A stretch of DNA of 64,000 bases from Ginglymostoma cirratum (Eukaryota): assembly GCA_024137785.1 (NCBI GenBank), contig JAHRHZ010000085.1:2170279-2234278 (forward strand), written 5' to 3'. Shown in pieces: positions 4,168-61,548 of this stretch. Within the stretch, counting starts at the first letter, position 1. Each line of letters begins with the position of its first letter. The notes beneath the pieces were generated by a model, which saw only the letters and a program-made list of their open reading frames with translations, ran no database searches and had not been told where the DNA came from. A program made the translations under genes and the position numbers.

Positions 4168-5852
4168 CTTCTTTCGCATTTTCCGGAAATGAACTCGAAA
4201 CATGATATATTTGACACATATAGGCGAATTTCGGATATATTTGGCATGCCCAAAGAGCTACTACTTAATAAAGTCCCTTGCCTTTTGCCTGTTTTACATT
4301 TCTAAATCCACTGAAGATTTGTGTACCATTTCTGTGCCAAGTCAGGTTAAAGTCTTCCGGATAAAAGCTAAATGTCCTGCACTGCAGCTTCAGAAAAGCA
4401 GATGAAGGGTCTTCGGAACGTATCGGTACAATGTTTAGGGGAGCTGGTGAAGCTGAATTGTAGAAAAAAAAACAATATTTAAATAAATGTGGACATTGGA
4501 CTTCTACTCAAAAACTTAAACGATTTAATGAACTGATCAACTGTTACTTCTGGGTATGGCAACTGTATTGATGGTCAAACTGGGAGGGGTTGCTATTACT
4601 TTTATCATGTAGGGACCTCCTAATGCAATTGATATATCAACTGTATGTTCAGCAAAAGTACTACCTTGTGTCCATATTAATAAATACAAATATATTTGAT
4701 TTCTCATACTGTAAACTCCTCGCAATTAGCAGTTTGGCAACATGATCACAGGAAATGAGAGGGCCGCAGTCAAAACGGGGGAATAGGAATTTGGCTTTTA
4801 AAGTTGGAAACAAAACGACATTTGAAGTGCTTAATGTTGCTGAAAACATCTAGACAATTCATTGTGTTGCTCGATGCTCAAATTGTTACAAGTGCGTATC
4901 TTGGAAGTCTTGCATTAGCTTTCTATGCAACACAAATTTGAACGCCATTGGTTGGTACAGTGCAATTGTTGAACTGTGTAGTGTCGCTTGTGATGCTTTT
5001 CTTTTTTTACCACATTATTGAACATGTTCCGAAGAAATGAATGATTTTATATACAATGTATATATTTGTGAAAACGTAACTGCTAACTCGCATTCACTAT
5101 TCAATGAAACCAAGACTTAACGTTTAACTGTGATATCACCAACCGTAGACAACAAGTTGCGTGGCGTGTTTGTTAGCAACTGTTTGGATTTGATGTTTGG
5201 CGACGCAGTAATATGTTCCAGAGTCCAGAACAGTCACATTCAAGAGATAGATGAAGGTAGGCTCTACGATACAATATTTTGAAGAGTTTTCTGCTGTCTT
5301 CCTTCAGAAGCATGTCATTATCTTCTTGCCAACAGAAAATCTCAATGTTTGAAAGGTTGAGCTGGACGGTAAAAGGGCATCGCGCGAGAGCTGTTGGAGT
5401 TATTAGGGTCCTTATTAGCATAACGTTAGAAGTAACATTGTCCGAAGTACACACAACTGTTAACAAAATATACGTATATTGATTAAACAGAGAAGGTGGA
5501 TTGCACCGTGAAAGAGCATAATTAGTCCAATACCCTCACGCAGAAGCAATTTATCATGCCTTGTTCTTCAAATTCTGACCCACTATCTGAGTTTCTGCCT
5601 GAACTGAAATATCGCAAATACTTTCTCACTTATCCAGAAGATTCCTAGGACATGAAAACACTGACACGAAAGACATACTAATGCGTGTCCGATTATCTGT
5701 CAATTATCAGTCCAGTTATTCTTCCATCTTGAGAAAGAACATTTCAAACACTGCAAGAAGGAGCATGTACCTGGATAGGAACGACGCGCACAAAAAAATT
5801 TCCACAGTGATCCACTCACAAACATGGCGACAATGAAACTCTGGCGGATCAT
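4168..5852 (-). pseudogene. Receptor paralogue copy A (leader 5771-5852, V 5144-5456, C1 4168-4452), disabled
   Basis: The V exon is 313 nt (+1 frameshift before LNVTVLDSGTYYC). C1 frameshifts after GFRNV into a stop, has deletions, and its donor is mutated GT to GG. TM and tail would lie left of the window. Confidence 0.88.
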
Positions 5853-12791: not shown

Positions 12792-13064
12792 CTGCTTTCT
12801 TAACAGTTGGTGTTTGCTGGATATGAGCTCGAAACACGACATACTTGACACGCGTGTCACTTTCGGGTATATTTGGCACGTCAAAGGAGCTGCCCACTTC
12901 ATAAGGTCCCTCGCCTTTTGTCTGTTTTACATTTCTAAATCCAGTGAAGATCTGTGTAATGTTTCTGTGCCAAGTCAGATTAAAGTCTTCCGGATAAAAT
13001 CCAGATGTCCTGCACGAAGGGTCTTCAGAACTTATCGTCACAATTTTTAAGGGAACTGGTGTAG
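12792..13064 (-). pseudogene. Orphan C1 exon (copy B); no V or leader upstream
   Basis: CRTSGFYPEDFNLTW is present with intact AG/GT sites. A 21-nt deletion and compensating frameshifts remove the second Cys. Intron homology to the intact gene stops near 13300. Confidence 0.82.
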
Positions 13065-15780: not shown

Positions 15781-18700
15781 TGATCCAAATCGTTAATAAT
15801 GTCAAGAGCTGAAGGGAATTGAACTGAGCATCATTGAGCAGGTTATTGGTGGACCAGTGCTAGCACTGTGGATGTCAGCCATCTTCCTGCAGACGAGTGC
15901 GACAATCCTGATAGGGCAGTAATTGGGTGTGTTGGAATTATCCTGTGACGCTTCCTCAGTGGAAAACAAAATCTCATCTCTGTCCAAAAGCGCAACCACT
16001 AATTTTTAAACACCATCCCATACATCTTGACTCATCCTCACTCAATGCAGGTACAAAACACAGAGAAAGGTGGAGAGAGAAACAGATTGAACGCTTTGAA
16101 TGTGGTATAACTTCTTCAGTCGTATTGGACTTGAAATGTTAACTCTGTTTTTCTATCCACAGAACTACCAAACCTGCTGAGTTTCTCTCACAATTTCTGT
16201 TTTCATTTTGTTTCAAATTTCCACATTGTTGGAATCCAGTGATGCAGCTGTGCTTGAACAGTTGGGCTAGGGATCCCACCATATTTGGAGCACACATCTT
16301 CAGTACTATTGATAGACTTCTGTCAAGGCCAATAACCTTTGCAGCATTTGGTTATGTCAGGTGGAGTGATTCAGATCAGCTGAAGACTGGTATTAATGAT
16401 GCTTTAGATATTTGGAGGAGGCTGATAAGCTCACCCACTCAGCACTTCCAGCTGAAGTTTGTTGCAAATGATTCAGCCTCACCGTTTTCGCTAAAGTCTT
16501 GGGCTCCCAGAGCATTAAGCGTGAGATTATTTTTGTAGCCTCCTACTTCAGTAAATTGTTTCATTGTTAAAAGCCTCTCACAAGTAAATGCGGCAGTCCT
16601 GAAAATTATACACCTGAAGTGGTCGCAGTGAAATTGACTAGCCGTGTTTATCAGTTGCTGGACATAACATCTGGCATGCAAGTGGTTGAAAAGCGTCACA
16701 AAAATGACTACAAACTTCACTTCGTGATGTCAGAGGAACATTGCTACACATTGTTGTCTATGCCTGACCTGAGTTTCTCCAAAGTAGACGTAACTGTAGT
16801 TATACAGTCGCCTTAAAGAATCATTCAATGCATAACTATGTTTGTTTAATTTTCTCATCTAAGATTTTGCTGAATCTCCAGATTTTTTCAAAACACTTCT
16901 TTTTGCTTTTTATTTAACCATGCAAGAATTGGCTTTTTGAATCATTCTAACTGCTCACAATTTATATGTTATCAATAGTGCTTGCAGTGTAATAGAAGAC
17001 CGCATTAAATTCCATATTTGTTTCCACTCTCATGTGTTTTGATGTCCAATTCTGTCTTCTATACATTGAATGTTGACTGTCATTTTGTCTCTTTATGTTA
17101 CACCTGAAGACGTATGACTTCATTTATATCTCTTATCTTCTCACAGTATCGAACTGTATTAATACCTTGACTGTTCAATTTATGGCAACTCAAAACAGGA
17201 ACCAATTTATTTCCAGATTATCCAATTTAGTATCAATAATGGGAACAGTTTCACACATCTACTCCAACCATACATCTCATAATGTTGAACATTCTACCAG
17301 ATCCACTCTTGAAAAAACCTCTACCCATGCAGAACAATCCCAACCTCTCCAAACTATCCGCATAACTGAGGTTTCTCGACCCCGCAACAAGTTTTCTAAC
17401 CCTTGTTTTCATACTGTCTGATGCGTTCATATCTTCTTCTCATGTGTTTTCCAGAAACGATAATCACTATCTGCCTGAAGTCTAATGCATTGTTTTGTAT
17501 TTGTTCACGTATTTATGCGCCGTGTGTGTTCAGCATAGATTCCTTGCTCTTGCACATTATTTCTCAATTAGGAAATACCTGGACAGTGCCTACAAGGAGC
17601 TATGGATGAAAGCCGTTGTCACTTTTTTTTAGCATCTGATTCTGTCACGCTAGCTCATAATAGAATGACGTCACGGAAATCAAGGGGATCAAGAATGCCA
17701 TATTGGCTTCAAATGTATGTATGATGGACAACTGTTTGATAAACATATTTTCATAATAAATTTTGCAACAGATTGTCAGCCATTAATTGCAGCCAATGGA
17801 ACAGTCAGAAATAACTTGGATTCATGAGACATTGATAAAAGGAAATAACTCCTTGAACGATTTTTGAAGCTTAATATAGGCTTATGGATGGGCAGTAGCT
17901 GAATAAAAAGCGAAAGCAAAGATATATATAATGCACACATTTGTTTGGTTCTTTTAACCATATTCTTGTTTGCTTAATTTACGCCACTTATAATGAATTT
18001 GTTCCTTTGTACTGGGTTTTCGACAATAGCTGGAACCCATTCAAATTTGACCAGAGTAACGCTTTCTAAAAAAAAAACTATTGTGCTCTGTTTTAGCTGC
18101 AAACAAAGTGTTTGTAATGATTTCATATTTATTCAAATAACACTGCAGAAAACGTGTCAAAGATATATCGAATGTCACCTCAAAACTATGTTTTTGTCAT
18201 TAGCCGAATAAACATGTCTACGCAAGTCCCGAGAAATGTAATACCTATTTGCACCTATTTCTTCTGTTTCGGAAATCTGGTCGTATGAGGAGCAGTTGAG
18301 AACTCTGGGTATGTACTTGATTGAGTGCAAAAAGGTAAGGGGCGATCTGATTGAAATTTACAGAATACCGAGAATGTCCTTGGAATCTACCAGTTCAAGT
18401 TTATCTTCGTCTATGAATCTTATCTTTTACACTGTTAATGATTATCACGCGTTAAATTTATTTTCTGAAGTCAAGAGTGAAGCGTACATATTATAATCAA
18501 CATTTGCATTGTTTGGCATTGCTATCAAGAAGTATAGCTTTAATAGACTAAAGTTTCTATTCTGATCTCCTTCTCGCCAGTGGACAAATGATCTAAATTT
18601 TCTTCATCTCAGAATCAACTTCTTTTCCGTGTAATGAAAAAAAGCAGAAGAACTCTACACGCATCCAGTTTTTTGCAAAACAAAATGCTTTTTACCATCA

Positions 18701-20910: not shown

Positions 20911-22439
20911 CTCGTCTTTCATTCCGTGTATTTGTTTTTATTTTTGTTTTGTTTCTACGTGCCTGGTGAGATATAAAGTTTGTATGAGTTGTCAAGAGAG
21001 TGGTGATACTTGCAACTATCTGCAAGCAAAAGAAACTGAACGTAGTTAATTTGTATGCGGGGTTATATATGGCAACCATATTCAATACTGTGCGCAGTTT
21101 TGGTCTCCTTACTTGAAAAAAGATATACTGGCACTGGAGGGGATGCAGAGGAGGTTCACTACGTTGATTCCGGAGTTGAGGTGGTTGGCTGATGAGGAGA
21201 AACTGAGTAGATTAGGATTATATTCATTGGAATTCAGAAGATTGAGGGGAGATCTTATAGAAACATATAAAATTATGAAGGGAATAGATAGGATAGAAGT
21301 AGAGAGGATGTTTCCACTGGCAGGTGAAGCTAGGACAAGAGGGCATAGCCTCAAGATTAGAGGGAGCAGATTTAGAACAGAATTGAGAAGGAACTTCTTC
21401 ACCCAGAGTGTTGTTAATCTATGGAATTCCTTAACCAGTGAAGTAGTTGAAGCTGCTTCAGTAAACGTCTTTAAAGCTAAGGTAGATGTTTTTTTTTGAA
21501 CAGTAAAGGAATTGAAGGATACGGTGAGAGCGCGGTTAACTGGATCTGAGTCCACAAAAAGATCAACCATGATCTTATTGAATGGCGGAGCAGGTTCAAA
21601 GGACCGGACGGCTTACTCCTGCTCCTAGTTCTTACGTTCTTATGTTCTTAATATAACTCAATATGGCAGACACAATAACATTTATTTTATGAGGTTTTAT
21701 GGGTTGAAGCTGAGGAATCACCCTTTTACGAATGAAATTCACTGATGGAGGTTTAACGGTCTCATTCTACTCCAACATTCGATTTGAAGGAAATCATATG
21801 TTTGAAAGTATTTTCACTTCTAATAGTTATTCCAACTGTCCAATGTGGAAGTTCCGATCCCGCTTATGTGAAATTTCATTGCGAAATTTCCTCAATACCT
21901 GCATTTAAATTGCTTCATTTAACATGGACATCTTTGGATATAATGATGTAACACTTTCCCGATCATCGCAGCGAGCAGTATAATTGCAGCACGGGCAAAT
22001 CCAAAGACCATAAAAGGGTCGATTTTCAAGAAAAATACTGTAGAGTAGATGTAATATCATAATTAAAAACTGGAGCGTAAACCAGAAATAAACGGGTTTG
22101 AATATCATATTTCCAAACAGTTTTTTTTTAATATGACATATCATAGAGATAGTGTTGCACGTTCTTTCGCAATAGTGTAAATGATATTTGCTGGAAACGA
22201 GCTCGAAACATAATGTACTTGACAAGTGTAAACTGTGTAGCACTTGTCTGCGCCTGACACATCTAAGGAGGTGACAACCTCACCAAGCCCGTTGCTGTTT
22301 ACTTGTTCATTTCTAAATCCAGTCAAGACTTTTGTATCGTTTATGCCCAAGACTAAAGTCATTTTGTTAAAGGCAGAAGTCCTGCAGAGATAAAAGATCT
22401 TCCGACCGTACCTGCAAAATTTGGGGGGATCTGGTGAAG
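20911..22439 (-). pseudogene. Divergent paralogue copy C: C1 (22161-22439), TM (21919-22037), decayed cyt1 (20911-20962)
   Basis: C1 keeps LCRTS and YTCQVHY but has lost the Trp through local frameshifts. The TM exon reads LFFLKIDPFMVFGFARAAIILLAAMIGKVLHHYIQRCPC then stop. Intron sequences align by eye with 48640-49360. Confidence 0.78.
21050..21650 (+). mobile_element. CR1 3' end
   Basis: RRLRGDLIETYKI..NFFTQSVV and a (gttcttat)n-type tail. Confidence 0.88.
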
Positions 22440-22679
22440 CTACATTGTAAATATTATAATTCAGATAAATCTAAACATTAGAATGCTAATCCAAAACTTC
22501 AATGATCTAAGACACAAGCGATCGGTAAATTTGGAGCGCAGTTTTTGCATTTGTAGTTATTATTTTCTTGGAGTAAATATTAAATTTAACATAGAGCAAT
22601 CCATCTAAAGCGATTCAGGTACCATTTCAAAGTTCAGCAAAATTCGTTTTGAGCTTATATAAATATTATTTTATAGAAA

Positions 22680-24293
22680 TATGTTTGAGATGTCAATCTG
22701 CATCCTTATCCTTGCAATCAGTTTGGAACGGGATTCTAGATCGCAGAAACTGCGACAGCCACGGTCCAAACAAGGGGGAATCACATTGTCCATCTTAATG
22801 AGAAGAGAGAGGAATCACACACCAACTTATTTAGGGACAGAATATATACTATCTGTGATACAATTAGCTATTAACAGCACATAATAAAACGATGGGATGA
22901 GATGACGGTATATCGCATCACCAATCGATTGAGTAGGGTACCCGCGCAAGTGAATTTAACAAAAAAAAAATTGCAGGCTTTCATTGCCGACCATCAGCAG
23001 ATTAGTTCTTATTTGGCAACAGTGCATAATGGTTTCTTACAACGAGAAGTTGCCATGACTTTCAGCCATGATCAATTGTTCCACAAAGCAGTCAGTTTTG
23101 GGACCCCAACTATGTATAATTGATGGTGCATATTTCAGCGGTGGTCACCTAAAGTTTCAGTAGTACACTCACTCTTACAGTATCCAATTGTTAAATTATT
23201 GGTAATTGTTTGTTTCTTGTTTTGTGTATCTGTGTAACTGCCTGTGAACTACATCACATGTTTGACTAACTTGCAACTATTGAGCAATATGTACATGCTT
23301 GCATAAGGGTTAGATAATCGATTTTGAAGATACCAAAGGGTTGTGTGTGGGGTGGGCTTAAAAAAATTATCTCCAAACCAGACCATTCAGGGTTAATCAT
23401 TAATGGTCAATTTGACCTGTAAATAAGCAATTGAAAACAAATGGAAAATTAGAGTGTAAAACAGCCTGCATTGGCTGGGAGTTAACTGCATGACCTTGGC
23501 TGGGTGGGAAACTGAGTAACGTGCATTTAAAAATAAGCCACCTGGAGATGTTTTTCAGCATGTTTTCTGCACAGTGGAATGCCAGAACAAGTGCAGTCAC
23601 AGAATCATAGAACCCCTACAGTGCGGATACAGGCCCTTCGGCCCAACAAGTCCACACAGACCCTCAGAGCATCCCGCCGAGACCCACCCCCCCATAACCC
23701 ACCTAACCTACACATCCCTGAACACTACAGGCATTTTAGTATGGCCAATCCACCTGACCTGCACATCATTGGACTGCGAGAGGAAACCGGAGCACCCAGA
23801 GGAAACCCATGCAGACACGGGGAGAACGTGCAAGCTCCACACAGACATTCGCCCGAGAGTGGAATCGAACTGGGGTCCCCAGCGCTGTGAGGCAGCAATA
23901 CTATGGATTGATGATACAGCATGTAAAGGTGGATTCAAAATAGTATTAATATCCGGGAATTTGCTGCATTCAGTGGAATTTTACCATTGGGCTGGAGCTC
24001 GCGAGACCGTGGAATCTGAGACAGAGTGCCAAATGCTGTCATCATCAAAGTCCCTGATGAGCCGAAAGACAGTATGAGAATTATTTGTTGTGTGTGTATT
24101 TATACATATATATGAGTAGTTTAACTTAAGCAGTTAATTTTAACAGATAACCACAATTTCAAATGCCAACTATTAATTCATATATATAGTATATTTTAAC
24201 CGAATAAAATTAGCTATATAATGAGTGCACTCGTCTTATTGTAATCATTTCAATCAAACCTTAAAGAATCCGTTAGGTACTTTCAATCTAACA
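22680..24293 (+). mobile_element. ERV env 3' end plus 3' LTR (copy D), with a SINE inside the LTR and no CR1
   Basis: LQAFIADHQQISSYLATVHNGFLQREVAMT is homologous to 56431-56772; the LTR aligns with 56802-58872. Confidence 0.8.
23605..23900 (-). mobile_element. tRNA-derived SINE inside an LTR
   Basis: Reverse complement of the SINE at 20550. Confidence 0.85.
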
Positions 24294-24540: not shown

Positions 24541-24940
24541 NNNNNNNNNNNNNNNNNNNNNNNNNNNNNNNNNNNNNNNNNNNNNNNNNNNNNNNNNNNN
24601 NNNNNNNNNNNNNNNNNNNNNNNNNNNNNNNNNNNNNNNNNNNNNNNNNNNNNNNNNNNNNNNNNNNNNNNNNNNNNNNNNNNNNNNNNNNNNNNNNNNN
24701 NNNNNNNNNNNNNNNNNNNNNNNNNNNNNNNNNNNNNNNNNNNNNNNNNNNNNNNNNNNNNNNNNNNNNNNNNNNNNNNNNNNNNNNNNNNNNNNNNNNN
24801 NNNNNNNNNNNNNNNNNNNNNNNNNNNNNNNNNNNNNNNNNNNNNNNNNNNNNNNNNNNNNNNNNNNNNNNNNNNNNNNNNNNNNNNNNNNNNNNNNNNN
24901 NNNNNNNNNNNNNNNNNNNNNNNNNNNNNNNNNNNNNNNN
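24541..24940. other. Assembly gap (400 N)
   Basis: Run of n. Confidence 1.
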
Positions 24941-25694: not shown

Positions 25695-25750
25695 CTTCTT
25701 TTGTAACAGTGTAGCTGGCATTTACTGGAAATGAGCTCGAAACGTGATAT
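25695..25750 (-). pseudogene. 3' stub of a C1 exon (copy D), truncated by a Penelope insertion
   Basis: YHVSSSFPVNASYTVTKE plus donor AAG|GTAAGA, nearly identical to 59879-59934. Confidence 0.82.
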
Positions 25751-45677: not shown

Positions 45678-45812
45678 TTAAGTTTGGCTGTTGGTTTTCA
45701 CTGCTGCATACAATGGAGTTGCAGTTTTGTGTTCTGGTTTCAATGTTAACTTGGGACCGTTCAAATTCAGAGTAGCGTAAGTCAGCTGGCTTTTTCTCAT
45801 GCTGTCTTTGGT
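45678..45812 (-). CDS. Terminal cytoplasmic exon with ITIM (LTYATL) and ITIM/ITSM-like motif (TPLYAAV)
   Basis: Acceptor aattttacag|. The phase-0 frame reads TKDSMRKSQLTYATLNLNGPKLTLKPEHKTATPLYAAVKTNSQT then TAA. This frame is not in the ORF track. Confidence 0.85.
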   Translation of the reverse strand, partial: TKDSMRKSQLTYATLNLNGPKLTLKPEHKTATPLYAAVKTNSQT

Positions 45813-48800
45813 CTGTAAAATTATATTGAAAGTAATTCATTTTTGCTCCAACGTTCATAAAATGCTAAGAATTTTTCAATGTTATCCAGGAACCAAATGA
45901 TTGAATTAAGAAAATAATTACTGTATTCAAACATATGAACTGAAAAGTACCTCTGCATATATTGTTCTTTCATCCTGGGGCTTCGGAATATTAGAATTCT
46001 TTGAGTGGACCAGTTTAAGATCAGCATACATTAATCTGTCTTCAACTGTCTCTTGTTTCCTCTGGAAAGTTAAAGTTTAATTCCATGAATTTATGTTTTC
46101 TGGAGTCAAGAATCAACATTTCAGAGTAATCAATGACAATTATTTTGTCTCCTTGAGTTTGCTAGCATTCTGTTACATTCTTAATAGTTGAAATCCACTG
46201 TATTCAATCTCTTTTCTCCACTCAGCAAAAATGAAAGCTGCCTCATTGCTCGATGGTGTAAGGTGTCCATGTTGGACTGGGGTGGACAAAGTCAGAAACC
46301 ACATGACACCAGGTTATAGTCCAAAAGGTTTGTTTGAAATCACAAGCTTTTGGATCCTCAGTCCTTCTTCAACTATCTGCAAATGTATCTGCAAATACTC
46401 ACTCTCTCTCTGTCTCTCCCACACATACACATAAATGCACACATGCATGTGAATCTAGGGAGGGAATTTGTATTTGCAGATACAGTTAATTTTGTTAAAA
46501 AGCACACAATTTATAGACAGTCAGTAAATGTGTGGCACTTTATAAATTATTACTTTAGAAATAAAATCAGTCTGACTCAAAACCAAGACACAAAAAATTT
46601 CTAAGCAAGGCCTCACACCTAACATTCATTGTCTGGCGGAAAGAGTCACCTTTGCTTTGCACGAATAAAAACTTTAATTCTCTCAGGACAGTGATTTGAA
46701 AGGAATTTGGGGATTCGCATGGACATAATAATGATTTAAGATTTAAGAGCACCTCGGGTTTATTTAATACGTCTTGATCAGTGGTGTGACCCTTTGATGT
46801 TGTACTTATAAATTCACTGTCTGATACTACCTCTCTCACTGACAGCTGAAGAAGGACTGAGGCTCCTAAAACTTGTGTTTTCAAGTAAACTTGTTGCACT
46901 AGAAACTGGTGTCTTGTAATTTTTGATGTTGTCATTGGCTGATGTCACCTTGCTCGCAAGCTATGAAAATTTATGTTTGAGTATGTTAAAACTTAGAAAA
47001 GGAACTCTGCAAAATTCAGTTTTCAAAGTACAAAATTATTGTATTAATTCAACATTATCAATTTTCAACATTCATACTGAAATCATTCAACATTACATCC
47101 TGCTACAGATTGAAGATGCTGTGAACGTTTTGCTCTAGATTTTGATGGAACTGATCTGAATTTTGTTTACAATGATAAATAAAGTTACTTAAAGCATGTC
47201 TCTTCATTTGGAAATAAAAACACAATTCAAACTGTGTGTAATGCCTAAACTGCTATGCTATCATTGGTTGTCTGGTGCATTAATTGGCTTCAAACTGGTT
47301 TTTCTTGTATTTTTGGCTTAATGCTTAAATTAGTAATTTAATTATACCGATAGAAGCAACCATTTATTGGTAAGATGAATAGTAATCAAACAATTAGATC
47401 TCATTAATTATGTCAATAGCACAGTTTCAATGATAATAAATGGGACAGTGAAGGTTTTTAGTGAAGATGAACATGCAAGCCAATTCCGTTGAATCTTTAA
47501 GGTACACAAAATGCCACACAGTATTTTCCAGCAAAGTGTTAACTTCTACCTGAAGATGTTTTTGTTAGGATAGCAAAATGAGGCAACAGATAATTTGGGA
47601 GCCTGGTCATGTAGAGAGTAAAGAAATAATTGAATAGTTAACCAATGGTGTTCCTTCCATTCAAAGAACAAAACACAAAATGGCAATTCTGTTTTACACA
47701 TATGCTCTCAGACTTTATATGCAATATTGTTTTAACAGAGGCAATTATTCATTCTCTTGAGATCTGCACCTCTGTACCTGACTCATTGAAATGCGGAGTG
47801 ACAACCTGACAAGACCAGGGGAAATGAAGGGAAGCATTAGCAAAGCTGAGAAACATGTTAAGTAACACAAATTCAAGGGCAGCTACTCAATGCATGTAAC
47901 ACTGACAAGAAGCTAAATGATTAAAAACAAATAAATAGAGATGAATGGCTCTGGCCTAATTGACATTATAAACACATCACTGCAGGATGATTAGGAGAAC
48001 TGATTATCCAATGATATTTAGTATGGACAAAGGAAAAGGGGATATGTTCATATTACATTAATAGTAATGGATGAGATCTGTATCTTAGGATCACAGATTA
48101 GAATAAAAAATGAGGAGTCTTCCATGGTGGAGCTAAGAAACAGTAAGCAGGAGGAAACGTTGGCAGTTGCTTATAAGCCACAAAGGCCAGTACTAATGTG
48201 AGGCACAGACAAAATAAAAAGACCAGTGTAGTGTGGTACATAGTTTTTGCAACAATCATGGCTGGATCCAATCAAGACATAGGCTTGACAAAGAGATGAG
48301 TACTATAGATGTGAAGGATGAGTTTCAGAGTGTGTTAGGGAGAGTTTTCTGGAGCAGTTAGTCTGTTTAAGAACAGACTAGAGAACTATGTTTATCTTGC
48401 AACGTGCGACAAATAATAATTAACAATATTGTTGCAAGAGAATCTTGAAACATGAATAACTGTACAATGATGGATTTAGCCATGACAAGTATGATAGTTG
48501 TTAATGTTTGTAATACTTTCAATCATTTCTTTCTGTATGTTACTTTCATGGTAAAGGCTAAGTTGCACTTTTGTCATGACAATAAAACTGTTTGACTTCA
48601 TCCAGATAGATTAAAACATTACTTTGATTGCAGTGACTGAATCATTCAGATAATTTTCAAAGCAAAGTCGATGGCTACAGGCTTTACCTCATCTTTGGGT
48701 TGAGTAGGATTTCTTGCTTTTTCCTTTGAACCTGGTGGCAATAAATTTGACATCAATTGTCAAGAGAGCCGTGATGTTTGCATTCATCAGTAAGATAGCA

Positions 48801-51800
48801 AAATACACTATGATTCACGTCGACACAAGGTGTAATAAGCTAACTGGATTCAGGATGTAACTGAACATGTTGAACTCCAGTACAATTATTTAGTTTGTGT
48901 TGAAGCTGTCAAAATATTACTTCATCAGCGAAATTCACCGGACTACCTTCAGATCTGAAAAGATAAGATTTAACAGACTAAAGCTACGACCCTGAACATG
49001 CAATGTTGGCTTTGAAGTGACACAAATGCGTGTAAGTAGTTTCACATCATATATTTATTTTAACTGGACAAGTCAGATTTCAGTACCCAATAATGTGAAT
49101 GCACTTCAGGTTGTTTAATCAACACATGTGTGGAAGTTGTTCCATTTCGTATGTATATTCCTGTTCGTACCTTTAGATATAATGAATAGAAAATGCTTCG
49201 CAACCATCACTGTGCATAATAGAATTGCAAGTGCTCCAGTGGCACATCCAGCGACAACAGCAACCCTGATTTTGGAGGCAAAATCTATGAGATGAACATA
49301 AAATTAAAATTAGAATTGGTTGTGAGAACCAGAAACTTATACATTTAAATATCATATGCTTCTTTTCTCATTACACTGCTTTGGTAATATTCTACTACTG
49401 TACATGAAATCTCACATGTTAACTTCTCCCCTCAGCTTTTCTTTATGCAGTTGGATACAAAGAGGGTAAATTATCGGAATTTGGAGAAATAAAAGCAGAT
49501 GAAACAATAAATATAATTAATATATCAAAATCCGGCAGTATTCAATTAATAAGTGTTCAGATCAGATGACTGTGGGACAAGTTTCCTTGAGATTCATTTT
49601 TGAGCACAAATTATTTTATACATTTTCAAAGAAAATCTTTCTCCATGTGCAAACTACCCAACTGTTGAGGGCAGACAATTGCATAGTCATCGTTCACTGG
49701 ACTAACAATAGAGAACTCCAAGTTCTTGGCTCGCGGATTTTAATGCCACCAGGGCAGATGGTGAAATTTGAACTCAATATAAACCTGTTTGTCAGAAAAT
49801 CACATGGTCTCCTTGTTATCGGAAAGATGTTGTTAGACTTGAAAGCATTCAGAAAAGGTTTGCAAGGATGTTTTCAGTTTTGGAGCATTTTAGCTACACA
49901 TAGAGGCTGAATAGGCTGGGGCTATTTTCTCTGGAACCTCAAAAGCTGAGGGGTGACCTTACAAATGTTTGTAAAATCATTCCAGCTATGGATAGAATGA
50001 ATAGTCAAGGTATTTTCCCCAGGGTGGGGCAGTCCTAAACTGGAGGACATAGGTTTAAGTTGAGAGGAGAAAGATTTAAAATGGACCTAAGGCGTAACTT
50101 TTTCACACAGAGGGTGGTGTGTGAATGGAATGAACTGCCAGAAATTGAGGTAGCATCTGGTACAATTACAACATTTAAAAGGCATCTGGATGGGTCTATG
50201 AATAGGAATGGTTTGGAGGGATATGTGCCAAATGCTGCCAAATGGGACTAGGTTAATTTAGGATATTTGGTCGGCAAGAACGAGTTGAAACTAAGTGTCT
50301 GTTTTTGCATAGTACATCTCTATGACTGACTGTATGATCAGGTCCTTTGGAAGTAATTTTGCCAACGTTATTTGTCATGCAAGTGACTCACTGCAAATTA
50401 GATGATTGTTAACCACCCCCTTGGCAATTACAGAAAGATAATAAATGTCCTCCCAGTAAACAATACCCTCAATGAAATCAAAAGATCTGCTAAACTCTGT
50501 TGAATGTTATGATAAATGGGTACACTCTTAGCTAAGATTACAAGGCATGGAGCTGGATGAACACAGCAGGCCAAGCAGCATCATAGGAGCAGGAAAGCTT
50601 GACATTTTGGGCCTAGACCCTTCATCAGAAATTATTTTTGATGGGGTCATCAGGATTTCTGATGAAGGGTCAGGCCCGAAACGTCAAGCTTTCCTGCTCC
50701 TATGATGCTGCTTGGCCTGCTGTGTTCATCCAGCTCCACACCTTGTTATCTCAGATTCTCCAGCATCTGCAGTACCTTTTATCTCTGATACACTCTTAGC
50801 TAAATCGTTTTCTGAACATATATGAAGATATTCAGGGGTCTTTGGAAGAAGTAACACAACAGGGATACTCAATGAATGGCGTGACACTCGGAAGCTCAGA
50901 TGAGTGGGAAAGGCTTGGACTTCTGTCCACAGATCCCTGAAGGTTGCAGGGCAGTTCACCATGGTGGTTAAGAAGACATACAAGGCATATGATCTTGTCA
51001 GTAATGGTGTAGATTTATAACAGCAAGGAGACTACTTTGGAGTTTAACAGGACTTTGGTTAGGCCACAGCTGGAGCACTGTGTGCAGTTCTGGTTGCCAC
51101 ACGGTTATAAGTGTTCGGCTTAAAACATCTCCAAGACAGACTATTAAGCCTTAAGGGTTAATTGGAAATGGCAATGTGCAATTGAAGACAAGTGGAACAT
51201 CACAAGGCTTTCAGCAAAACAGCTTGCCTTGCCTGGGAGGGAAAAAATATCGTGCAGTTAAAAAGGAGCTATGTTGGAAGTGTTTATCAATTTGTTTTTG
51301 TTAGAAGTCACAGGACACTAGGTTATAGTCCAACAGGTTTTTTTTTAGAATCACAAGCTTCCCAACCGCTGCTCATTCATCAGGAGAAGATGACCGGACG
51401 AAACAGCAGACCTCAGAAAGCTTGTGATTTCCAATGAACCTGTTCGACTATAGCCTGGTGTGTGTGACTTCTGACTTTGTCCACCTCACTCCAACACTGG
51501 CACCTCCATGTCATAATTTGTTTTTACGCAGTGGAATGCCTGGAAAACCGCTGTAAACGCGCCGAAATAGTAAAACAGCGTGTAACTTGAGACTTAGAAT
51601 AGTATTAATGTCGGGGACTTGGCACCATCCATTGAAAGTTCACCAACGGGCTCAAGACCGGCGCCGTGGAACTGGAGATCGAACTCCATGTACCTCCATC
51701 GCCAAAGTCCCCAGAGAGCAGAGAGGCAGTGTGAAACTCACATGTTAAAGATATATCTCAGTAGATTAACCTGACGATTTAACTTTCATATATTAAGTGA

Positions 51801-54800: not shown

Positions 54801-57800
54801 AAGGGACGCAAACCAATTTAGGGATTATTATGGTGGACCATCAATTCAGGTTCATTAAAATTTCACAGTTATCCCATCTTCAGTAGCATATCATCTGCAC
54901 CCCAGTGATCAAACCGAATATTGTTTTTACTGTCAGAGTGGAAATAACCAATGGAAATAAATTATCTTCCCATTGCCGCTCTGTAAACACACCATGAACA
55001 TTACAGAGGCGAGGCCGGAGAGATGTACTCACTATTCTAGATTGAGCAGAGGCGAGAATGCTTGTGTTAACTTCCATGGGTATTGAAGCTCTAAAAAATA
55101 AAATTGCTAAAGCTAGGCAACTAACCAAATATTAACCTATTCGTTGCGTGGACCAAATCATTAGCTCATCGAGATTAAGCAAATTGATTTTTGACTGAGA
55201 TAACAAGGTGTAGAGCTGGATGAACACAGCAGGCCAAGCAGCATCAGAGAAGCAGGAAAGCTGACGTTTCGGGCNNNNNNNNNNNNNNNNNNNNNNNNNN
55301 NNNNNNNNNNNNNNNNNNNNNNNNNNNNNNNNNNNNNNNNNNNNNNNNNNNNNNNNNNNNNNNNNNNNNNNNNNNNNNNNNNNNNNNNNNNNNNNNNNNN
55401 NNNNNNNNNNNNNNNNNNNNNNNNNNNNNNNNNNNNNNNNNNNNNNNNNNNNNNNNNNNNNNNNNNNNNNNNNNNNNNNNNNNNNNNNNNNNNNNNNNNN
55501 NNNNNNNNNNNNNNNNNNNNNNNNNNNNNNNNNNNNNNNNNNNNNNNNNNNNNNNNNNNNNNNNNNNNNNNNNNNNNNNNNNNNNNNNNNNNNNNNNNNN
55601 NNNNNNNNNNNNNNNNNNNNNNNNNNNNNNNNNNNNNNNNNNNNNNNNNNNNNNNNNNNNNNNNNNNNNNNNNNTCCTGCTCCTCCGATGCTGCTTGGCC
55701 TGCTGTGTTCATCCAGCTCGACACCTTGTTATCTCAGATTCTCCAGCATGTGCAGCTCTTACTATCTCTGGTTTTTGACTGACATGGTTTGCAAGTTTGC
55801 GGATAGCACCGTTTAGAAAATGTATCACACCGGGATAAATCCTAGTTCCAAAGCTAACTGAATAGATTGTCAGCTGCTCGAGCTGTGTAGTTACAGCACA
55901 AAGACATGAAGTGATCAATGTATTGCAATCTGTACATCTGTTGTCTTGGAAATAATTATTTCACCTCACTATTACTAACTTAATGCTTCTGCCTGTCTTG
56001 TTAAAGAGTAATTGCAATGCCACAGTACGCAATGCCGATTATTTAAAACTTAATACAGCAGCAAATATGGTGCCAGTTTATCAACCTATCTCATCAGTCA
56101 CGGGGTACGCTGCTGACATCAGTATTTTATGGCACATGGCTGTAAACAGCAATTAGACCCATTGGGAACAATAGGCCTGGTAGGCCCCTTATATTTCCCT
56201 ACCTTTGAAACATCATACAATCATTTATGAAATTGGTCTGAACCACATATTTGATTCTAGAAATCATTCTGTCCACCTTATTGATAAGAGAGAGGAACCA
56301 TCTGCCAACCTATTTCGGGACAAAACATATGTTATCTATGATGAAATTAGATATAATCACCACATAATCGAAGAATGGGAGCGATAACTGTGTATCGAGT
56401 ACAGTACCTCCAGTTGTTATATTTAAGAAATTGCAGGCTTCCCTGACCAAGCATCAGCAGGTTCGTTCTTACTTGGCAACAAAACACCATGGCTTCTTAC
56501 AGCAAGAAACTGCCATGACTTACAGCCCTGATCAATTGATTCACAAAGCAGATAATTTAGGAACCCTTTCTATGTACCATTGGTGGGTCATATTTAACGG
56601 ATGGTCACCAGAAGCTTCAGCAGTACTCTCACTGTTATGGGATCCAAACGTTTATATTATTTTTAACTGTTTCTCGTTTTTATGTATCTGTGTGATGGCC
56701 TGCAAACTATATCACATGTATCAAAAACTTGTAGCTATTGAGCAGCATGTACGCGCTTGTAAAAGGTTTTGAGAAACGATTTTGAAGACATCAATGGGTG
56801 TTGTGTCGTCCAGGCTTAAAAATGACATCTCCAAACCAGACCGTTCAGGGTTAATCATTTAAGATTAATTGCACATGAAAGTCAGCAACTGCAGACAAGT
56901 GGAAAATCACAGTTTCAGTGTGAAAAAGGCTTTCTTTGGCTGGGAGGGAACTGCATGAACTTGGGTGGGTGGAAAACAGAACAATGTACAGTTAAAATTG
57001 TCCTTGTTCAAAAAAGGGAATAGGGATAACCGCGGAAATTCAGACCAGTTAGTCTAACAGCAGTGGAGGACAAATTACAAGAAAGGGCTCGAAGAGATAG
57101 GATTTATGGTCACTTGGATAGGCACAGTTTGATTCGTGATAGTCCGCATGGATTTGTGAGGGGTAGAACATGCCTCACAAACTTTATTGAATTCGTTGAA
57201 GAGGTCCCCAAACACGTGGATGAAGGTAGCACAGTGGATGTGGTACACATGGATTTAAGTAAGGCGCTTGATAAGGTTCCCTATGGTAGGCTCATGCAGA
57301 AGACAAGGAGGCATGGGGTAGGGGAAATTGTGGCAGATTGGATTCAGAATTGGCTGACCCTTACAAGACAAATGGTGGTACTGGATGGAAAATATTCAAC
57401 ATGGTGCTCAGTTACGAGTGGTATACCACAAGGATCAGTTCTGGATCCTCTTCTGTTTGTGATTTTTGCAAATTATTTGGAAGAAGGATGGAACTGGTGG
57501 ATTAGTAAGTTCGCAGATGATATGAAGGTGTGTAGAGTTGTGGATAGTGCGGAGGGCTGTTCTAGGTTACAAAGGGACATTGATAGGATGCAGAGCTGGG
57601 CTGAGAAATGGCAGATGGAGTTTAACCCTGAAAAGTGTGAGGTGATTCATTTTGGAAGGACAAATTTGAAAGCAGAATACAAGGTTAACAGAAAGATTTT
57701 TGGTAGTGTGGAGGACCAGAGGGATCTTGGGGCTCATATCCACAGTTCCCTGAAAGCTGCCACCCAGGTGGATAGAATTGCTAAGAAGGCGTATGGTGTG

Positions 57801-60800
57801 TTACTTTTCATTAATAGAGGGATTGAGTACAAGAGCTGTGAAGTTATGCCCCAGCTATACAAAACCCTTGTTCGGCCACATCTGGAGTATTGTGTCCAGT
57901 TCTAGTTGCCTCATTACAAGAAAGGTGTGGAAGCATTGGAAAAGGTGCAAAGTAGATTTAACAGGATGTTGTCTGGAATGGAGGGAAGGTCTCAGGACGA
58001 AAGGTGAGAGCCCGAGAGCTCTTCTCTTCACAACGACGAAGGATGAGAGGTGACTTGATAGAGGTATGCAAAATGATCAGAGGTATAGAAAGAGTGGACA
58101 GCCAGAGAATATTTTCCTCGGTTGGACGTAGCTATTATGAGTGGGCATAGTTTTAAAGCGAGTGGAGGTAGATATAGGGGAGACGTCAGAGCTAGGTTCT
58201 TTCCTCAGAGAGTGGTCCGGGCGTGGAATGCCTTGCCGGAGAGTTTAGTCGAGTCGGCCTCATTAGGGGCATTTAAGTGGCTAGTAGATAGGCATATGGA
58301 TGATAGTACAAGTTTGGGGTAGAGGTTAGATAGACCTTAGGTTTAGAGTAAAATTTCGGCACAACATCGTAAGATGAAGTGCCTGAACTGTGTTGTACTG
58401 TTCCCTGTTCTAAAAAAGACACATCTGGAAGACTTTTTCAGCTTATTTTCTCCGCAGTGGAATACCAGGAAGAGTTGCTGTAAGTTTTATGAAATGGTGA
58501 TATAGCATGTGACAGTAGATTCGAAACAGTATTGATATCGGGGATTTTGCCCCATTCATTGGACTTCCACCGTTGGGTTGGTGTTCATGAGACGGGCACC
58601 GTGGAATCTCAAATAAAGTTCCAAGTGATGTCATCGCCAAAGTCCCCGCCGAGTCCGAAAGGCAGTATGAGAATCACTTCTTCATACGGATATATGCGGA
58701 GTTTAACCTAACCATTCAACTTTAACGTGTATCGAAAATTTAAAATGTCAACTACTAATTCATATGTGTATGAAGTATGAACGAAATAAATTAGCTCTAA
58801 AAATGAGTGCACCTGTATTGTAATTATTTTAGTCTAACGTAAAACAATTCGTTATAAACTTTCGACCTAACACAGAAAGATGTAATTCCACTGGGGAGGG
58901 TGCAGAGGGGATTCGCCGGGATGCTGCCTGGTTTGGAACATTTTAGCTGTGATGTTTCTGGAGAAGCATGGACTGTTTTCTTTGGGGCAGGGAAGGTTGA
59001 GGGGAGCCTACGATTGAGCTGTATACGATTATGAAGGCAGAGACAGGGTGGATGAACAACAACTGCCCACTTTAGTTTAAGGATGAATAACGTGAGGTCA
59101 TAATTTGCAGAGGGAAAGGTAAGTGGTTTACAGCTACATGGAGGATGTATTTTTCACAAAGAGGGTGTTAGGCATCAGTAACGCGCTGCCTGGGAGCCTA
59201 GTGCAGGTAACAAACCTTTCAGTAATGTACGTGGACTACGCCGTAACATTCAAGTCTCTGGGCCAAGTGCTGGAAAGTGTGATTCTTGTAAATATGAGGG
59301 CTGCACTCAAGGGACAAAAAGGCTTTTTCTGTGCTGTATATCCTGATGATATTCCTCTCACAAACGGTGAGGACTGCAGATGCTGGAATACAGAATAAAT
59401 GAATGTGGAGCTGGAAAAGCGCAGTAGGTCAGACAGCAGCGCGGGAGCAGGAATGCCATCACTTCGGCCCGAAACATTCACTTTCCTGCTCTTCGGCTGC
59501 TCTCTGACCTGCTGTGCATTTCCAGCTCCACATTTATTGACTAATTTTCCTCTCTATCTATTTGTCAGCCTTTAATGTATCCAAAAAAATAAATTTAATA
59601 CTGAATGTATCTTCGGAAATGAATTGTAACTTTGTGTATTTAATTAAAACTATGGGACCTTTCAACGACGAATATTCACTTTTGGCAGTATCTCACCTGG
59701 CAATATACTACACACATTTGGAATAAGCTAAAGAAAGGAAACCTTTGACCATACAATAGTGTCAAATTTCGGGATTGACACTATCACCGGGAAATGACTG
59801 TCGTAATAACGTTTTACTTCGTCAACCTTTTTAAACGATGCCTGAACGATTAACGTACAATGTGTCATAGAATCTTACCTTCTTTCGTAACAGTGTAGCT
59901 GGCATTTACTGGAAATGAGCTCGAAACGTGGTATACTTGACACACGTAGACTATGTCACTTTCGGGCATATTTGGCACGTCCAAGGAGCTGACCACTTCA
60001 TAAAGTCCCTCGCCTTTTATCTGTTTTACGTTTCTAAATCCAGTGAGGATTTGTGTACCGTTTCTGCGCCAAGTCAGGTTGAAGTCTTCCGGATAAAAGC
60101 CAGATGTCCTGCATTGCAGCTCGAAAGAAACAGACGAAGGGTCTTTTAAGGGTATCAACACAATGTTTAGGGGAGCTGGTGAAGCTGCATTGTAAATAAA
60201 ATTCACATAAATGTAGACATTGGACTTCTACTCCAAAACTGAAATGATTTACTGAACTAACCAACTGTTACTTCTGGGTATGGCGGCTGCATTGATCGTC
60301 ATTATTTATGCGAGTAGGGGTTGCTGTTACTTTTATCATGTAGCGACCTCCTAATGCAATTGATACATCAATTTATACTATCTTGTGTCTCTATTAATGA
60401 GTAAATATGTTCGAGTTTTCATACTGTACACTTCTCGCAATCAGCGGTTTGGGAACAGGATCGTTGAAAATGAGACGGCCGCAGTCCAAGCGAAGGGAAA
60501 GGGAAAATACGGAGTCCGTATTTTCAAATTTGAAAATAAAATGACATTTAAAGTGCTTAATAACCTCGAGACAATACATTCTGTTACTCCGTGCTTAAAT
60601 TGTAAAAGTGCTTCCTTGGAAATCTTGCATTAGCTTTCAATGTAACACAAATTTAAATACCGTTTGCTGACACAGTGCAATTTCTGAACTGTGTAGTGTC
60701 GCTGGTGATGCTTTTTTTTTAAACGGCATTATTGAACGTGTCATTCGGAAGAAGTGAACAATCTTATATTCACTGCATGCATTTAAGAACATGTAACTGC

Positions 60801-61548
60801 TAACTTGCATTTACTGTTCATTGGAACCAAGTTGACTGAACGTTTACTTTGGTAGCACTAACCGTATACTACAAGTTGCGTAGCTTGTTTCTCAGATATC
60901 CTTCCATGCTGATTTTCGAATCTACAGTAATATGTTCCCGCGTCCAGGACAGTCACATTGAAGAGTTTGAGGTCGGCTCTATGTTTCGTTACCGTGAAGA
61001 GTTTTCTGCTGTCTTCCTTCAGAAGCATCTCATTACCTTCTCTCCACCAGAAAACACTTATCTTTGAAGGGTTGGACTCGAAGGGGAAAAAGCACCGCAG
61101 GATAGCTGTTGTATTTATCAGGGTTTTTACTTGCATAATATCCGGAGTAACATCGTCCGAAGTGCAGACAGCAACTGTTAACAAAAGCCATATATACAAT
61201 GATTAAGCAGGGAAGATGAACTACAACATGAAATAAACTAATTAATCCGAGACAGTAGCTCTTTGTTTTCTCCGTCACTCTCTGAATTCCTGCCCTAACT
61301 GAACTACTGCAAATATTTTTTCACTTATTCAGAGGATTCTTAAAACAAGGAACTCAGACGTAAAAAGCATATGAAAAAAAGTGTCCGATTATCCATCAAG
61401 TATCAGTTCAATTATTCTTCCACATCAATCAAGGACATTTCAAACACTGCAGGGAGGAGCATGTACCTGGATACGAAATGCACAGAAAACATAAGTTCCA
61501 CAGCGATCCACTCACAAACATAGTGACAAAGAAACTCTGGCAGAACAT
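45678..61548 (-). CDS. Intact 6-exon Ig-superfamily receptor gene (leader-V-C1-TM-cyt-ITIM), SIRP-like inhibitory receptor, 330 aa
   Basis: Exons of 82+312+306+114+44+135 nt = 993 nt splice in frame with GT-AG junctions (phases 1,1,1,1,0). Protein: MFCQSFFVTMFVSGSLWNLCFLCISYPV...LRC..FWWR..DAGTYYC..ATQLVVY-ASP..LQCRTSGFYPEDFNLTW..YVCQVYH..-TM VAVVAGCATGALAILLCTVMVA-..LTYATL..PLYAAV..stop. Confidence 0.85.
46260..46930. mobile_element. Penelope-derived terminal-repeat fragment with inverted ends
   Basis: Begins with acaccaggttatagtcc..gaaatcacaagc and ends with its approximate reverse complement; interior resembles 8780-9330. Confidence 0.6.
48688..48731 (-). CDS. First cytoplasmic exon
   Basis: Acceptor attgccaccag|, donor GAG|GTAAAG, 44 nt, phase 1/0. 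Reads GSKEKARNPTQPKDE. A decayed homologue with matching flanks is at 20911-20962. Confidence 0.75.
49171..49284 (-). CDS. Transmembrane exon
   Basis: Acceptor tcatctcatag|, donor AAG|GTACGA, 114 nt, phase 1/1. Reads DFASKIRVAVVAGCATGALAILLCTVMVAKHFLFIISK. A homologue sits directly after the divergent C1 exon at 21919-22037. Confidence 0.85.
49830..50340 (+). mobile_element. CR1 3' end
   Basis: RRNFFTQRVVCEWN. Confidence 0.8.
50521..50803. mobile_element. Palindromic Penelope-derived mini-element with a 15-bp TSD
   Basis: TSD tacactcttagctaa at 50521-50535 and 50789-50803, with ~100-bp inverted arms. The site is empty in the paralogous sequence near position 50. Confidence 0.85.
50659..50685 (+). 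ncRNA. Minimal type I hammerhead ribozyme core
   Basis: CUGAUGA-AGGGUCAGGCCC-GAAAC-GUC. Confidence 0.62.
51103..51957 (+). repeat. 5' LTR (interrupted by a ~215-bp Penelope-derived insert at ~51300-51515)
   Basis: Collinear similarity to 56802-56997 plus 58413-58872 (e.g. gacaagtggaa, cgcagtggaat, catcgccaaagtcccc, ending in aaca). Confidence 0.75.
53083..53237 (-). mobile_element. Penelope-derived short insert in ERV gag with a 14-bp TSD
   Basis: TSD cggtgaagttgtca at 53083-53096 and 53224-53237; absent at the paralogous site near 1795. Confidence 0.82.
55188..55782. mobile_element. Palindromic Penelope-derived element in ERV env, spanning an assembly gap
   Basis: Inverted arms either side of the gap; TSD tttttgactga. 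Confidence 0.78.
55275..55674. other. Assembly gap (400 N)
   Basis: Run of n. Confidence 1.
56802..58872 (+). repeat. 3' LTR (interrupted by CR1 at ~56998-58412)
   Basis: Follows the env stop and a PPT-like tract; matches the 5' LTR. Confidence 0.75.
56998..58412 (+). mobile_element. CR1 LINE 3' fragment inserted in the 3' LTR
   Basis: 280-aa RT ORF (GIPQGSVL, FADD). Absent from the LTR copy at 23340-24293. Confidence 0.92.
59879..60184 (-). CDS. Ig C1-set domain exon
   Basis: Acceptor acaatgcag|, donor AAG|GTAAGA, 306 nt. C1 motifs LQCRTSGFYPEDFNLTW and YVCQVYH. Confidence 0.93.
60863..61174 (-). CDS. Ig V-set domain exon
   Basis: Acceptor ttgttaacag|, donor ACG|GTTAGT, 312 nt. B-strand Cys (LRC), C-strand Trp (FWWR), D-x-G-x-Y-x-C (DAGTYYC) and G strand ATQLVVY are all in one exon. 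Confidence 0.93.
61467..61548 (-). CDS. Leader/signal-peptide exon of the intact receptor
   Basis: ATG at 61548 gives MFCQSFFVTMFVSGSLWNLCFLCISYP, then a phase-1 donor CAG|GTACAT. The same frame, length and donor occur in the paralogue at 5771-5852. Confidence 0.75.

Follow-up and report, generated by a model that had tools for sequence, protein, structure and literature searches.

The window analysed here (64,000 nucleotides, C85:2170279-2234278 of the genome assembly) holds one intact inhibitory receptor gene and decayed copies related to it. Among the latter is the candidate of this study, a C1 exon followed by a TM exon in which an arginine resides (Table 1). The intact paralogue has AG..GT ends throughout, and its three tail exons supply four Tyr motifs, two of which are canonical ITIMs. 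Two group-1 pseudogenes also lie in the window. The first, at 4168-5456, has a frameshifted V, a stop in its C1, and a frameshifted TM just beyond the window; the second, at 12792-13064, is a solitary frameshifted C1. Two 400-base runs of N (24541-24940 and 55275-55674) each fall inside a SINE-like repeat.

Table 1. Positions in the window of the exons and remnants of the candidate and of the intact inhibitory paralogue
Feature	Positions	Strand	Remarks
Candidate C1b exon, group-3 type, pseudogenic	22161..22439	-	279 nt; AG..GT ends; frameshifts in two compensating pairs; Trp not in frame
Candidate TM exon	21932..22037	-	106 nt (intact genes: 114); Arg codon CGT 21993-21991 = column 16
Read-through to TAA (21921-21919)	21919..21931	-	after 12-nt deletion across former donor
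Candidate cyt1 homologue	20911..20962	-	52 nt; G-T-stop, i.e., stop at third codon
cyt2 remnant, degenerate	18215..18408	-	insertions; limits approximate
cyt3 remnant, degenerate	17979..18096	-	stops and frameshifts; no readable ITIMs
Chimeric junction near 22779	22440..23532	-	group-3 V-C1 intron fused to group-1 C1-TM intron; also in two sister copies
Group-1 C1a exon, 3' remnant with donor	25695..25750	-	56 nt; lacks 5' part and V exon; preceded by mobile-element sequence
Leader exon, intact inhibitory paralogue	61467..61521	-	
V exon (V-set), intact inhibitory paralogue	60863..61174	-	
C1 exon (C1-set), intact inhibitory paralogue	59879..60184	-	
TM exon, uncharged, intact inhibitory paralogue	49171..49284	-	
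cyt1 exon, intact inhibitory paralogue	48688..48731	-	
cyt2 exon, intact inhibitory paralogue	45951..46061	-	ITIM LMYADL and second Tyr motif
cyt3 exon, intact inhibitory paralogue	45678..45812	-	ITIM LTYATL and ITIM-like motif, stop

A decayed Arg-TM locus and its sister copies

Much of what the initial annotation recorded at the candidate holds. Specifically, the C1 exon has the reported length, is stop-free, and keeps both Cys while its Trp is gone; the TM exon, with its Arg and an AG acceptor, has no donor and is read on to a TAA; the cyt1 homologue stops at once; and no V exon was found upstream of the candidate C1 within the window. The layout, initially described as a lone C1, needs amendment: the 3' remnant of a group-1 exon, C1a, sits 3.2 kb upstream of the candidate C1 (C1b) in colinear context. 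Thus, the locus is a C1a-C1b-TM chimera.

The short, ITIM-free tail was first explained as a simple read-through of a donor mutated from AAG|GT to AAG|AT. The donor is indeed gone, here through a 12-nt deletion; the GT-to-AT change is the state of three sister copies. Read-through of a mutated donor does not account for the tail, which is made by that deletion together with a frameshift in the TM exon. Two deletions lie within this exon, one of 6 nt directly after the Arg and one of 2 nt near the 3' end that shifts the frame. Because of the 2-nt shift, the bases that intact genes translate as I-I-S-K are read here in another frame, as the tail residues IQR.

The C1 frame, though open as described, carries two compensating frameshift pairs (deletions of 1+8 and 1+5 nt) plus a 3-nt deletion, and about 21 of its codons are consequently out of frame. 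Since 21 random codons are stop-free with a probability of 0.28, the open frame is uninformative on selection, and we rejected the reading of the stop-free C1 as a selected one. The candidate C1 matches no Pfam family at E<=0.01 and so receives no C1-set score; three other C1 exons of the family, scanned with Pfam, are recognised as C1-set with E-values between 1.6e-10 and 3.2e-10. C1 pN/pS is 1.0 in the three closest copies of the candidate clade, compared with 0.56 for group 1 and 0.59 for group 2. The candidate possesses a basic TM residue and a short tail and, with no V exon, a frameshifted C1b, and a blank Pfam scan, has no intact ligand-binding ectodomain. Read from its DNA, the locus is a pseudogene and would make no receptor.

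A genome-wide search for copies of the candidate's clade returned eight matches. Four are group-3 TM copies, the candidate included, and none of the four is intact. They form a clade with support of 100/100. At column 16, their codons are CGT, CGT, CAT, and CCT, specifying Arg, Arg, His, and Pro, so that one of the candidate's three sisters shares its Arg; CAT is the product of CpG decay of CGT. The TM donor is lost in all four copies, and in the C85:2928k copy, read-through continues in frame into a tail of approximately 10 residues. Three copies have in common the chimeric junction near window position 22779 and an 8-nt C1 deletion. The fourth, C85:3566k, is the only copy that has a V exon, albeit a broken one, and that is free of the 8-nt deletion; its column-16 residue is Pro. 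The AU test does not discriminate between branching orders of the four copies (p-AU 0.24 and 0.21), and the Arg codon was kept in the alignments used for this order and for the TM clades. Every other group-3 C1 or V unit examined contains a stop or a frameshift. Two C1 exons occur only in this dead clade, the intact genes being V-C1-TM. Finally, the candidate C1 frame is a weak query for homologues: none of 56 candidates reached E<=1e-4, and this search found no annotated protein of the clade in other species.

A cluster of ITIM-bearing and Arg-bearing genes

Searching the genome with the C1 of the intact paralogue yielded 98 matches (150 scored of 165 candidates), located mostly at C85 1.76-3.78 Mb. 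The DNA surveyed for TM exons comprises 1,068,809 bases of the 1.91 Mb at C85:1.89-3.80 Mb, window included, and 70 kb of C84. Because this is only part of the 1.91 Mb, the cluster counts are lower bounds. At least 33 TM exons are of the candidate's type: 12 of group 1, all Gly or decayed; 6 of the group-2 Gly set; 11 of a group-2 Arg clade; and the 4 of group 3. The group-2 Arg clade (support 92/87) encodes its basic residue at column 17, with CGT in ten exons and CAC in one. Thus, 10 of 33 TM exons carry an Arg one column away from that of the candidate. We rejected the notion that the candidate Arg is the Arg of this living clade, given that the two are one column apart and belong to separate clades.

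Nine of the ten column-17 Arg exons retain AG..GT ends, and one member, the pseudogene C85:3536k, has independently lost its donor. Three stand behind intact leader, V, and C1 frames (C85:2309.9k, C85:2939.5k, and C84:33.3k). Upstream of five lies a lesion, which is a frameshift in the leader for one, a defect of the C1 acceptor for another, a C1 frameshift for a third, and stops in C1 for the remaining two. For the other two exons, the surveyed DNA contains no ectodomain exon. Intact Arg-TM members, whose absence everywhere the initial annotation named as fatal to its proposal, are present in this genome and among the gene models of other sharks, and one of them is spliced. The Arg-TM genes at C85:2939.5k-2950.5k and C84:33.3k-41.4k have intact frames, and in the C84 gene, the C1 Trp is replaced by Gly. 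Several Arg genes combine group-1 heads with group-2 tails; group-1 heads are carried by six genes of the column-17 clade, one of which has His. The Arg gene C85:2309.9k is identical to the ITIM gene of the window at 95/103 positions in V and 99/101 in C1, with 90.7% identity over 8 kb of DNA. Near-twin ITIM and basic-TM members thus coexist in the cluster, which, as far as gene structure reveals, is a paired-receptor family.

Within the column-17 clade, 10 of 11 exons keep CGT, and seven putative intronic CpG sites are each kept in 1-6 of the 11 copies, which are not independent of one another. This pattern suggests that selection acts on the column-17 Arg. Overall TM pN/pS does not separate living from dead clades: it is 0.92 for the candidate clade, 0.98 and 0.96 for the Arg clade and group 1, respectively, and 0.59 for the group-2 Gly set. 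A frameshifting cyt2 exon of 109 nt is found in 8/11 Arg-clade copies and in 1/6 Gly copies.

Transcription of C85:2309.9k was assessed by comparing four runs (X1, X2, X6, and X7) with L007:3200-7400, a part of the gene C85:2297805-2309921 (L007, L008); none of the runs listed as matching is registered as RNA. Contigs from X1 and X2 (studies P1 and P2) join TM to cyt1, cyt1 to cyt2, cyt2 to cyt3, and cyt1 to cyt3 at GT..AG, and they differ at no letter from the TM exon of this gene; the C1-TM joint lies outside the compared stretch. X6 gave 217 reads, all in repeat-like intron stretches, and X7 gave zero, so neither run touches the TM or tail exons. With cyt2, the tail has one ITIM followed by a frameshifted end. 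When cyt2 is skipped, both cyt3 tyrosines are mutated, and no ITIM is present. Contig depth, which is a poor measure, is 70.7 for the skip form versus 114.9 for the full form in X2 and 6.1 versus 12.4 in X1. Since the full tail of this spliced gene keeps one ITIM, living Arg members are not all short-tailed.

Homologues in other sharks and rays, all of them automatic gene models, have a TM Arg in 9 of 14 cases. Zebra shark XP_048402851.2 (P0003) and one Hemiscyllium model have this Arg at column 17. P0003 ends after one ITIM, as does the gene C85:2301k of the present genome, and therefore loss of the distal ITIMs seems older than the split of the species. At column 16, the position of the candidate's residue, horn shark P0007 has Arg, and its ITIM-bearing twin P0015 has Gly; the two are identical at 242 of 278 positions (87%), and the short tail of the P0007 model may be incomplete. 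The C1 of P0007 belongs to none of groups 1-3, so convergence, rather than orthology, probably explains the Arg it has in common with the candidate. An Arg placed more N-terminally, together with a short tail, occurs in Heptranchias, Scyliorhinus, Chiloscyllium, and two rays. P0003, P0007, and P0015 are intact V-C1-TM models, the first two with Arg, whereas the candidate is a pseudogene, of which neither P0003 nor the horn shark pair is an established orthologue. The Hemiscyllium model P0004 is apparently a fusion by annotation of two neighbouring genes, V-partial C1-TM(R) and then V-C1-TM-tail, under a misleading name.

Origin of the candidate Arg

The initial annotation viewed the candidate as the relic of an activating member of a paired-receptor system. 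The family is real and contains intact Arg-TM members; descent of the candidate from such a member is likely only, as its Arg cannot be dated to before inactivation. We regard the candidate as a pseudogene within a shark paired-receptor family and assign a probability of about 60% to its descent from an activating lineage (i.e., one with an Arg anchor and a short tail). The Arg as such is weak evidence, because basic TM residues are common under neutral simulation and stray cases exist. Specifically, in simulations of 1,500 replicates per setting, with two start exons and two distances, columns 12-24 acquired a basic residue in 19-42% of cases and columns 16-17 did so in 2-16%. Among 16 Gly-class exons, two have a stray Arg or Lys in columns 10-24. 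The position of the Arg and the shared donor loss provide moderate evidence for activating descent. Two of the four group-3 copies have CGT and a third has its CAT derivative, all four have lost the donor, and column 16 is where the horn shark Arg gene has its Arg and its ITIM twin a Gly.

The initial annotation also allowed that the Arg could be simple pseudogene drift. As a private change in the candidate, drift fails, since the Arg is inherited within the group-3 clade. Drift deeper in the clade is a possibility to be taken seriously, if a somewhat doubtful one: both the Arg and the donor loss could be neutral decay in an inhibitory or already dead group-3 lineage, the likeness to an activating receptor being coincidental. 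Every group-3 unit examined is broken, and a C1 frameshift is common to the three closest copies. The fourth copy, with its V exon, has Pro; by parsimony, the column could have been Pro initially and have turned to Arg once the lineage had been frameshifted. The living Arg clade, moreover, is distinct from group 3 and has its Arg at column 17; a donor was lost independently in its pseudogene C85:3536k; and drift, as noted, often places a basic residue in one or another column of the TM. Against this explanation, only 0.3-1.5% of simulations put a basic residue at column 16 itself, a position that matches the horn shark Arg twin, and the Arg co-occurs with a donor loss that yields a clean tail in the in-frame sister.

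Under activating descent, an Arg would have arisen in the ancestor of the clade and its TM donor would have disappeared, leaving a tail as long as the one still read in frame in C85:2928k. An unequal crossover would then have placed a group-1 5' half in front. C1b would have become frameshifted, and the unit would subsequently have duplicated and decayed.

A different notion, which we consider very unlikely, is that the chimera works or did so recently: an upstream V and C1a would be spliced to the Arg TM with the dead C1b skipped, producing a group-1-headed activating receptor. All exons are phase 1, the chimeric junction is present in three copies, the C1a frame of C85:3097k is open, group-1 heads also occur in the six column-17 clade genes mentioned above, and the candidate's TM acceptor is AG. 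However, C1a in the window is a 56-nt remnant with no V found, and in C85:3097k, the C1a acceptor is AT and the TM acceptor AA. Finally, we discount as exceedingly improbable the idea that the candidate is an intact activating gene whose lesions come from faulty assembly: some single-base indels of the cluster do fall in homopolymers (e.g., in the leader at C85:2494.5k), but those of the candidate are multi-base (5, 6, 8, and 12 nt), its 8-nt C1 lesion recurs in two sisters that are 77-80% identical, and its V exon is missing altogether.

Relation to known receptor systems

Paired receptors such as KIR, LILR, PIR, PILR, and SIRP form clusters of members with similar ectodomains, some with ITIMs and others with an Arg or Lys in the TM (PMC3533184). 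Members with a basic TM couple to ITAM adaptors, and ITIM members inhibit (PMC3533184, PMC2413239, and PMC3210942). Ectodomains can be homogenised between the opposite signalling halves, as in KLRC and PIR, and rat Ly49 provides 'bifunctional' members with both Arg and ITIM (PMC3210942). The cluster exhibits the same clustering, homogenised ectodomains, and Arg-plus-ITIM forms; it differs in consisting of cartilaginous-fish V-C1 genes and in that the candidate is dead. By analogy, the Arg members that are still alive would associate with an adaptor bearing an ITAM, of the CD3zeta/FcR-gamma or the DAP type, and activate, and ITIM members would recruit SHP phosphatases and inhibit. A TM exon of the CD3zeta/FcR-gamma family is present in the genome; a search of the genome for the DAP10 family gave no match, which is not proof of absence. 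A predicted complex of the C85:2301k Arg TM with two CD3zeta/FcR-gamma-family TM exons scored 0.11 versus a mark of 0.34, a value that counts neither for nor against pairing.

SIRP-alpha is inhibitory and SIRP-beta DAP12-coupled (PMC3533184). The cluster family resembles SIRP in its order of V then C1 and in a tail with four Tyr motifs, and automatic RefSeq names include 'SIRP-alpha-like' and 'SIRP-beta-1-like' (one zebra shark member). In a ranking against solved structures, SIRP-alpha (2wng) placed 6th when P0003 was compared and 5th when the family profile was; CD276, UrIg2, and antibody chains did equally well or better. The mammalian SIRP ectodomain is V-C1-C1, and its basic TM residue is Lys rather than Arg. 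Intact cluster genes differ on both counts, having one C1, not two, and, in the basic-TM members, Arg, not Lys. The mammalian SIRP neighbours NSFL1C and SNPH (SEP-domain and syntaphilin-family genes) have family matches on C87, C52, C77, and C138 and none on C84 or C85, with the proviso that these contigs may form one chromosome. On the C1 count, the structure ranking, and neighbours off C84/C85, orthology to mammalian SIRP is not established.

Skate MDIR molecules are likewise paired receptors. The FcR-gamma-coupled receptors LILRA2, PIR-A, NKp46, GPVI, OSCAR, Fc-alpha-R, and Xenopus XFL contain an NxxR/TM1 module (PMC2413239). An older class of the same shark family is similar, with an N-terminal TM Arg, a short tail, and, in several members, an Asp or Glu 17 residues later. 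The NxxR motif is absent from the candidate and the column-17 clade. Their Arg lies mid-TM on an inhibitory-type exon, with no acidic residue at +17, and so the two have an origin separate from that of NxxR/TM1.

The principle of paired receptors is already known from mammals, Xenopus, and rodents. We found no description of the shark V-C1 family in the literature consulted, including the accessible portions of PMC12227049, PMC11599192, and PMC10751288 and one PMC3964593 supplement; subscription journals fall mostly outside this literature, and other supplements may list these genes. We put forward, tentatively and as something short of an even bet, the following combined picture: sharks have a paired V-C1 family in which an activating Arg anchor was invented at least three times (N-terminally, at column 16, and at column 17), activating tails acquire new ligand-binding heads through crossovers within the C1-TM intron, exon skipping switches a living member between Arg-plus-ITIM and Arg-only forms, and the candidate would be the fossil of one invention, which, separately from mammals, arrived at a SIRP-beta-like arrangement, V-C1-C1-TM(basic).

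Being a pseudogene, the candidate carries little weight of its own, and the cluster carries more. There, near-twin ITIM and Arg genes adjoin and illustrate how the paired immune receptors of cartilaginous fish pass through cycles of birth and death. These twins are test pairs for defining the adaptor and the ligand of the oldest jawed-vertebrate V-C1 receptors and for learning whether a SIRP-type checkpoint reaches sharks.

Other relatives are found in and around the cluster. An older-class V-C1-TM gene at C85:1905587-1918039, close to P0011 and P0010, has open V, C1, and TM frames, an N-terminal TM Arg, Asp at +17, and a short tail; it is probably a conserved activating member of the FcR-gamma type, as predicted from these features. 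More distantly related V-C1-TM genes that belong to the same superfamily are scattered through the cluster at C85:1.96-2.12, 2.74-2.78, and 3.68-3.78 Mb; some of them have J-like strands with GxGT. Finally, C84:6.7-7.5 Mb and C85:9.6-9.9 Mb harbor additional clusters of C1-set exons, with 34-44% identity to the window C1.
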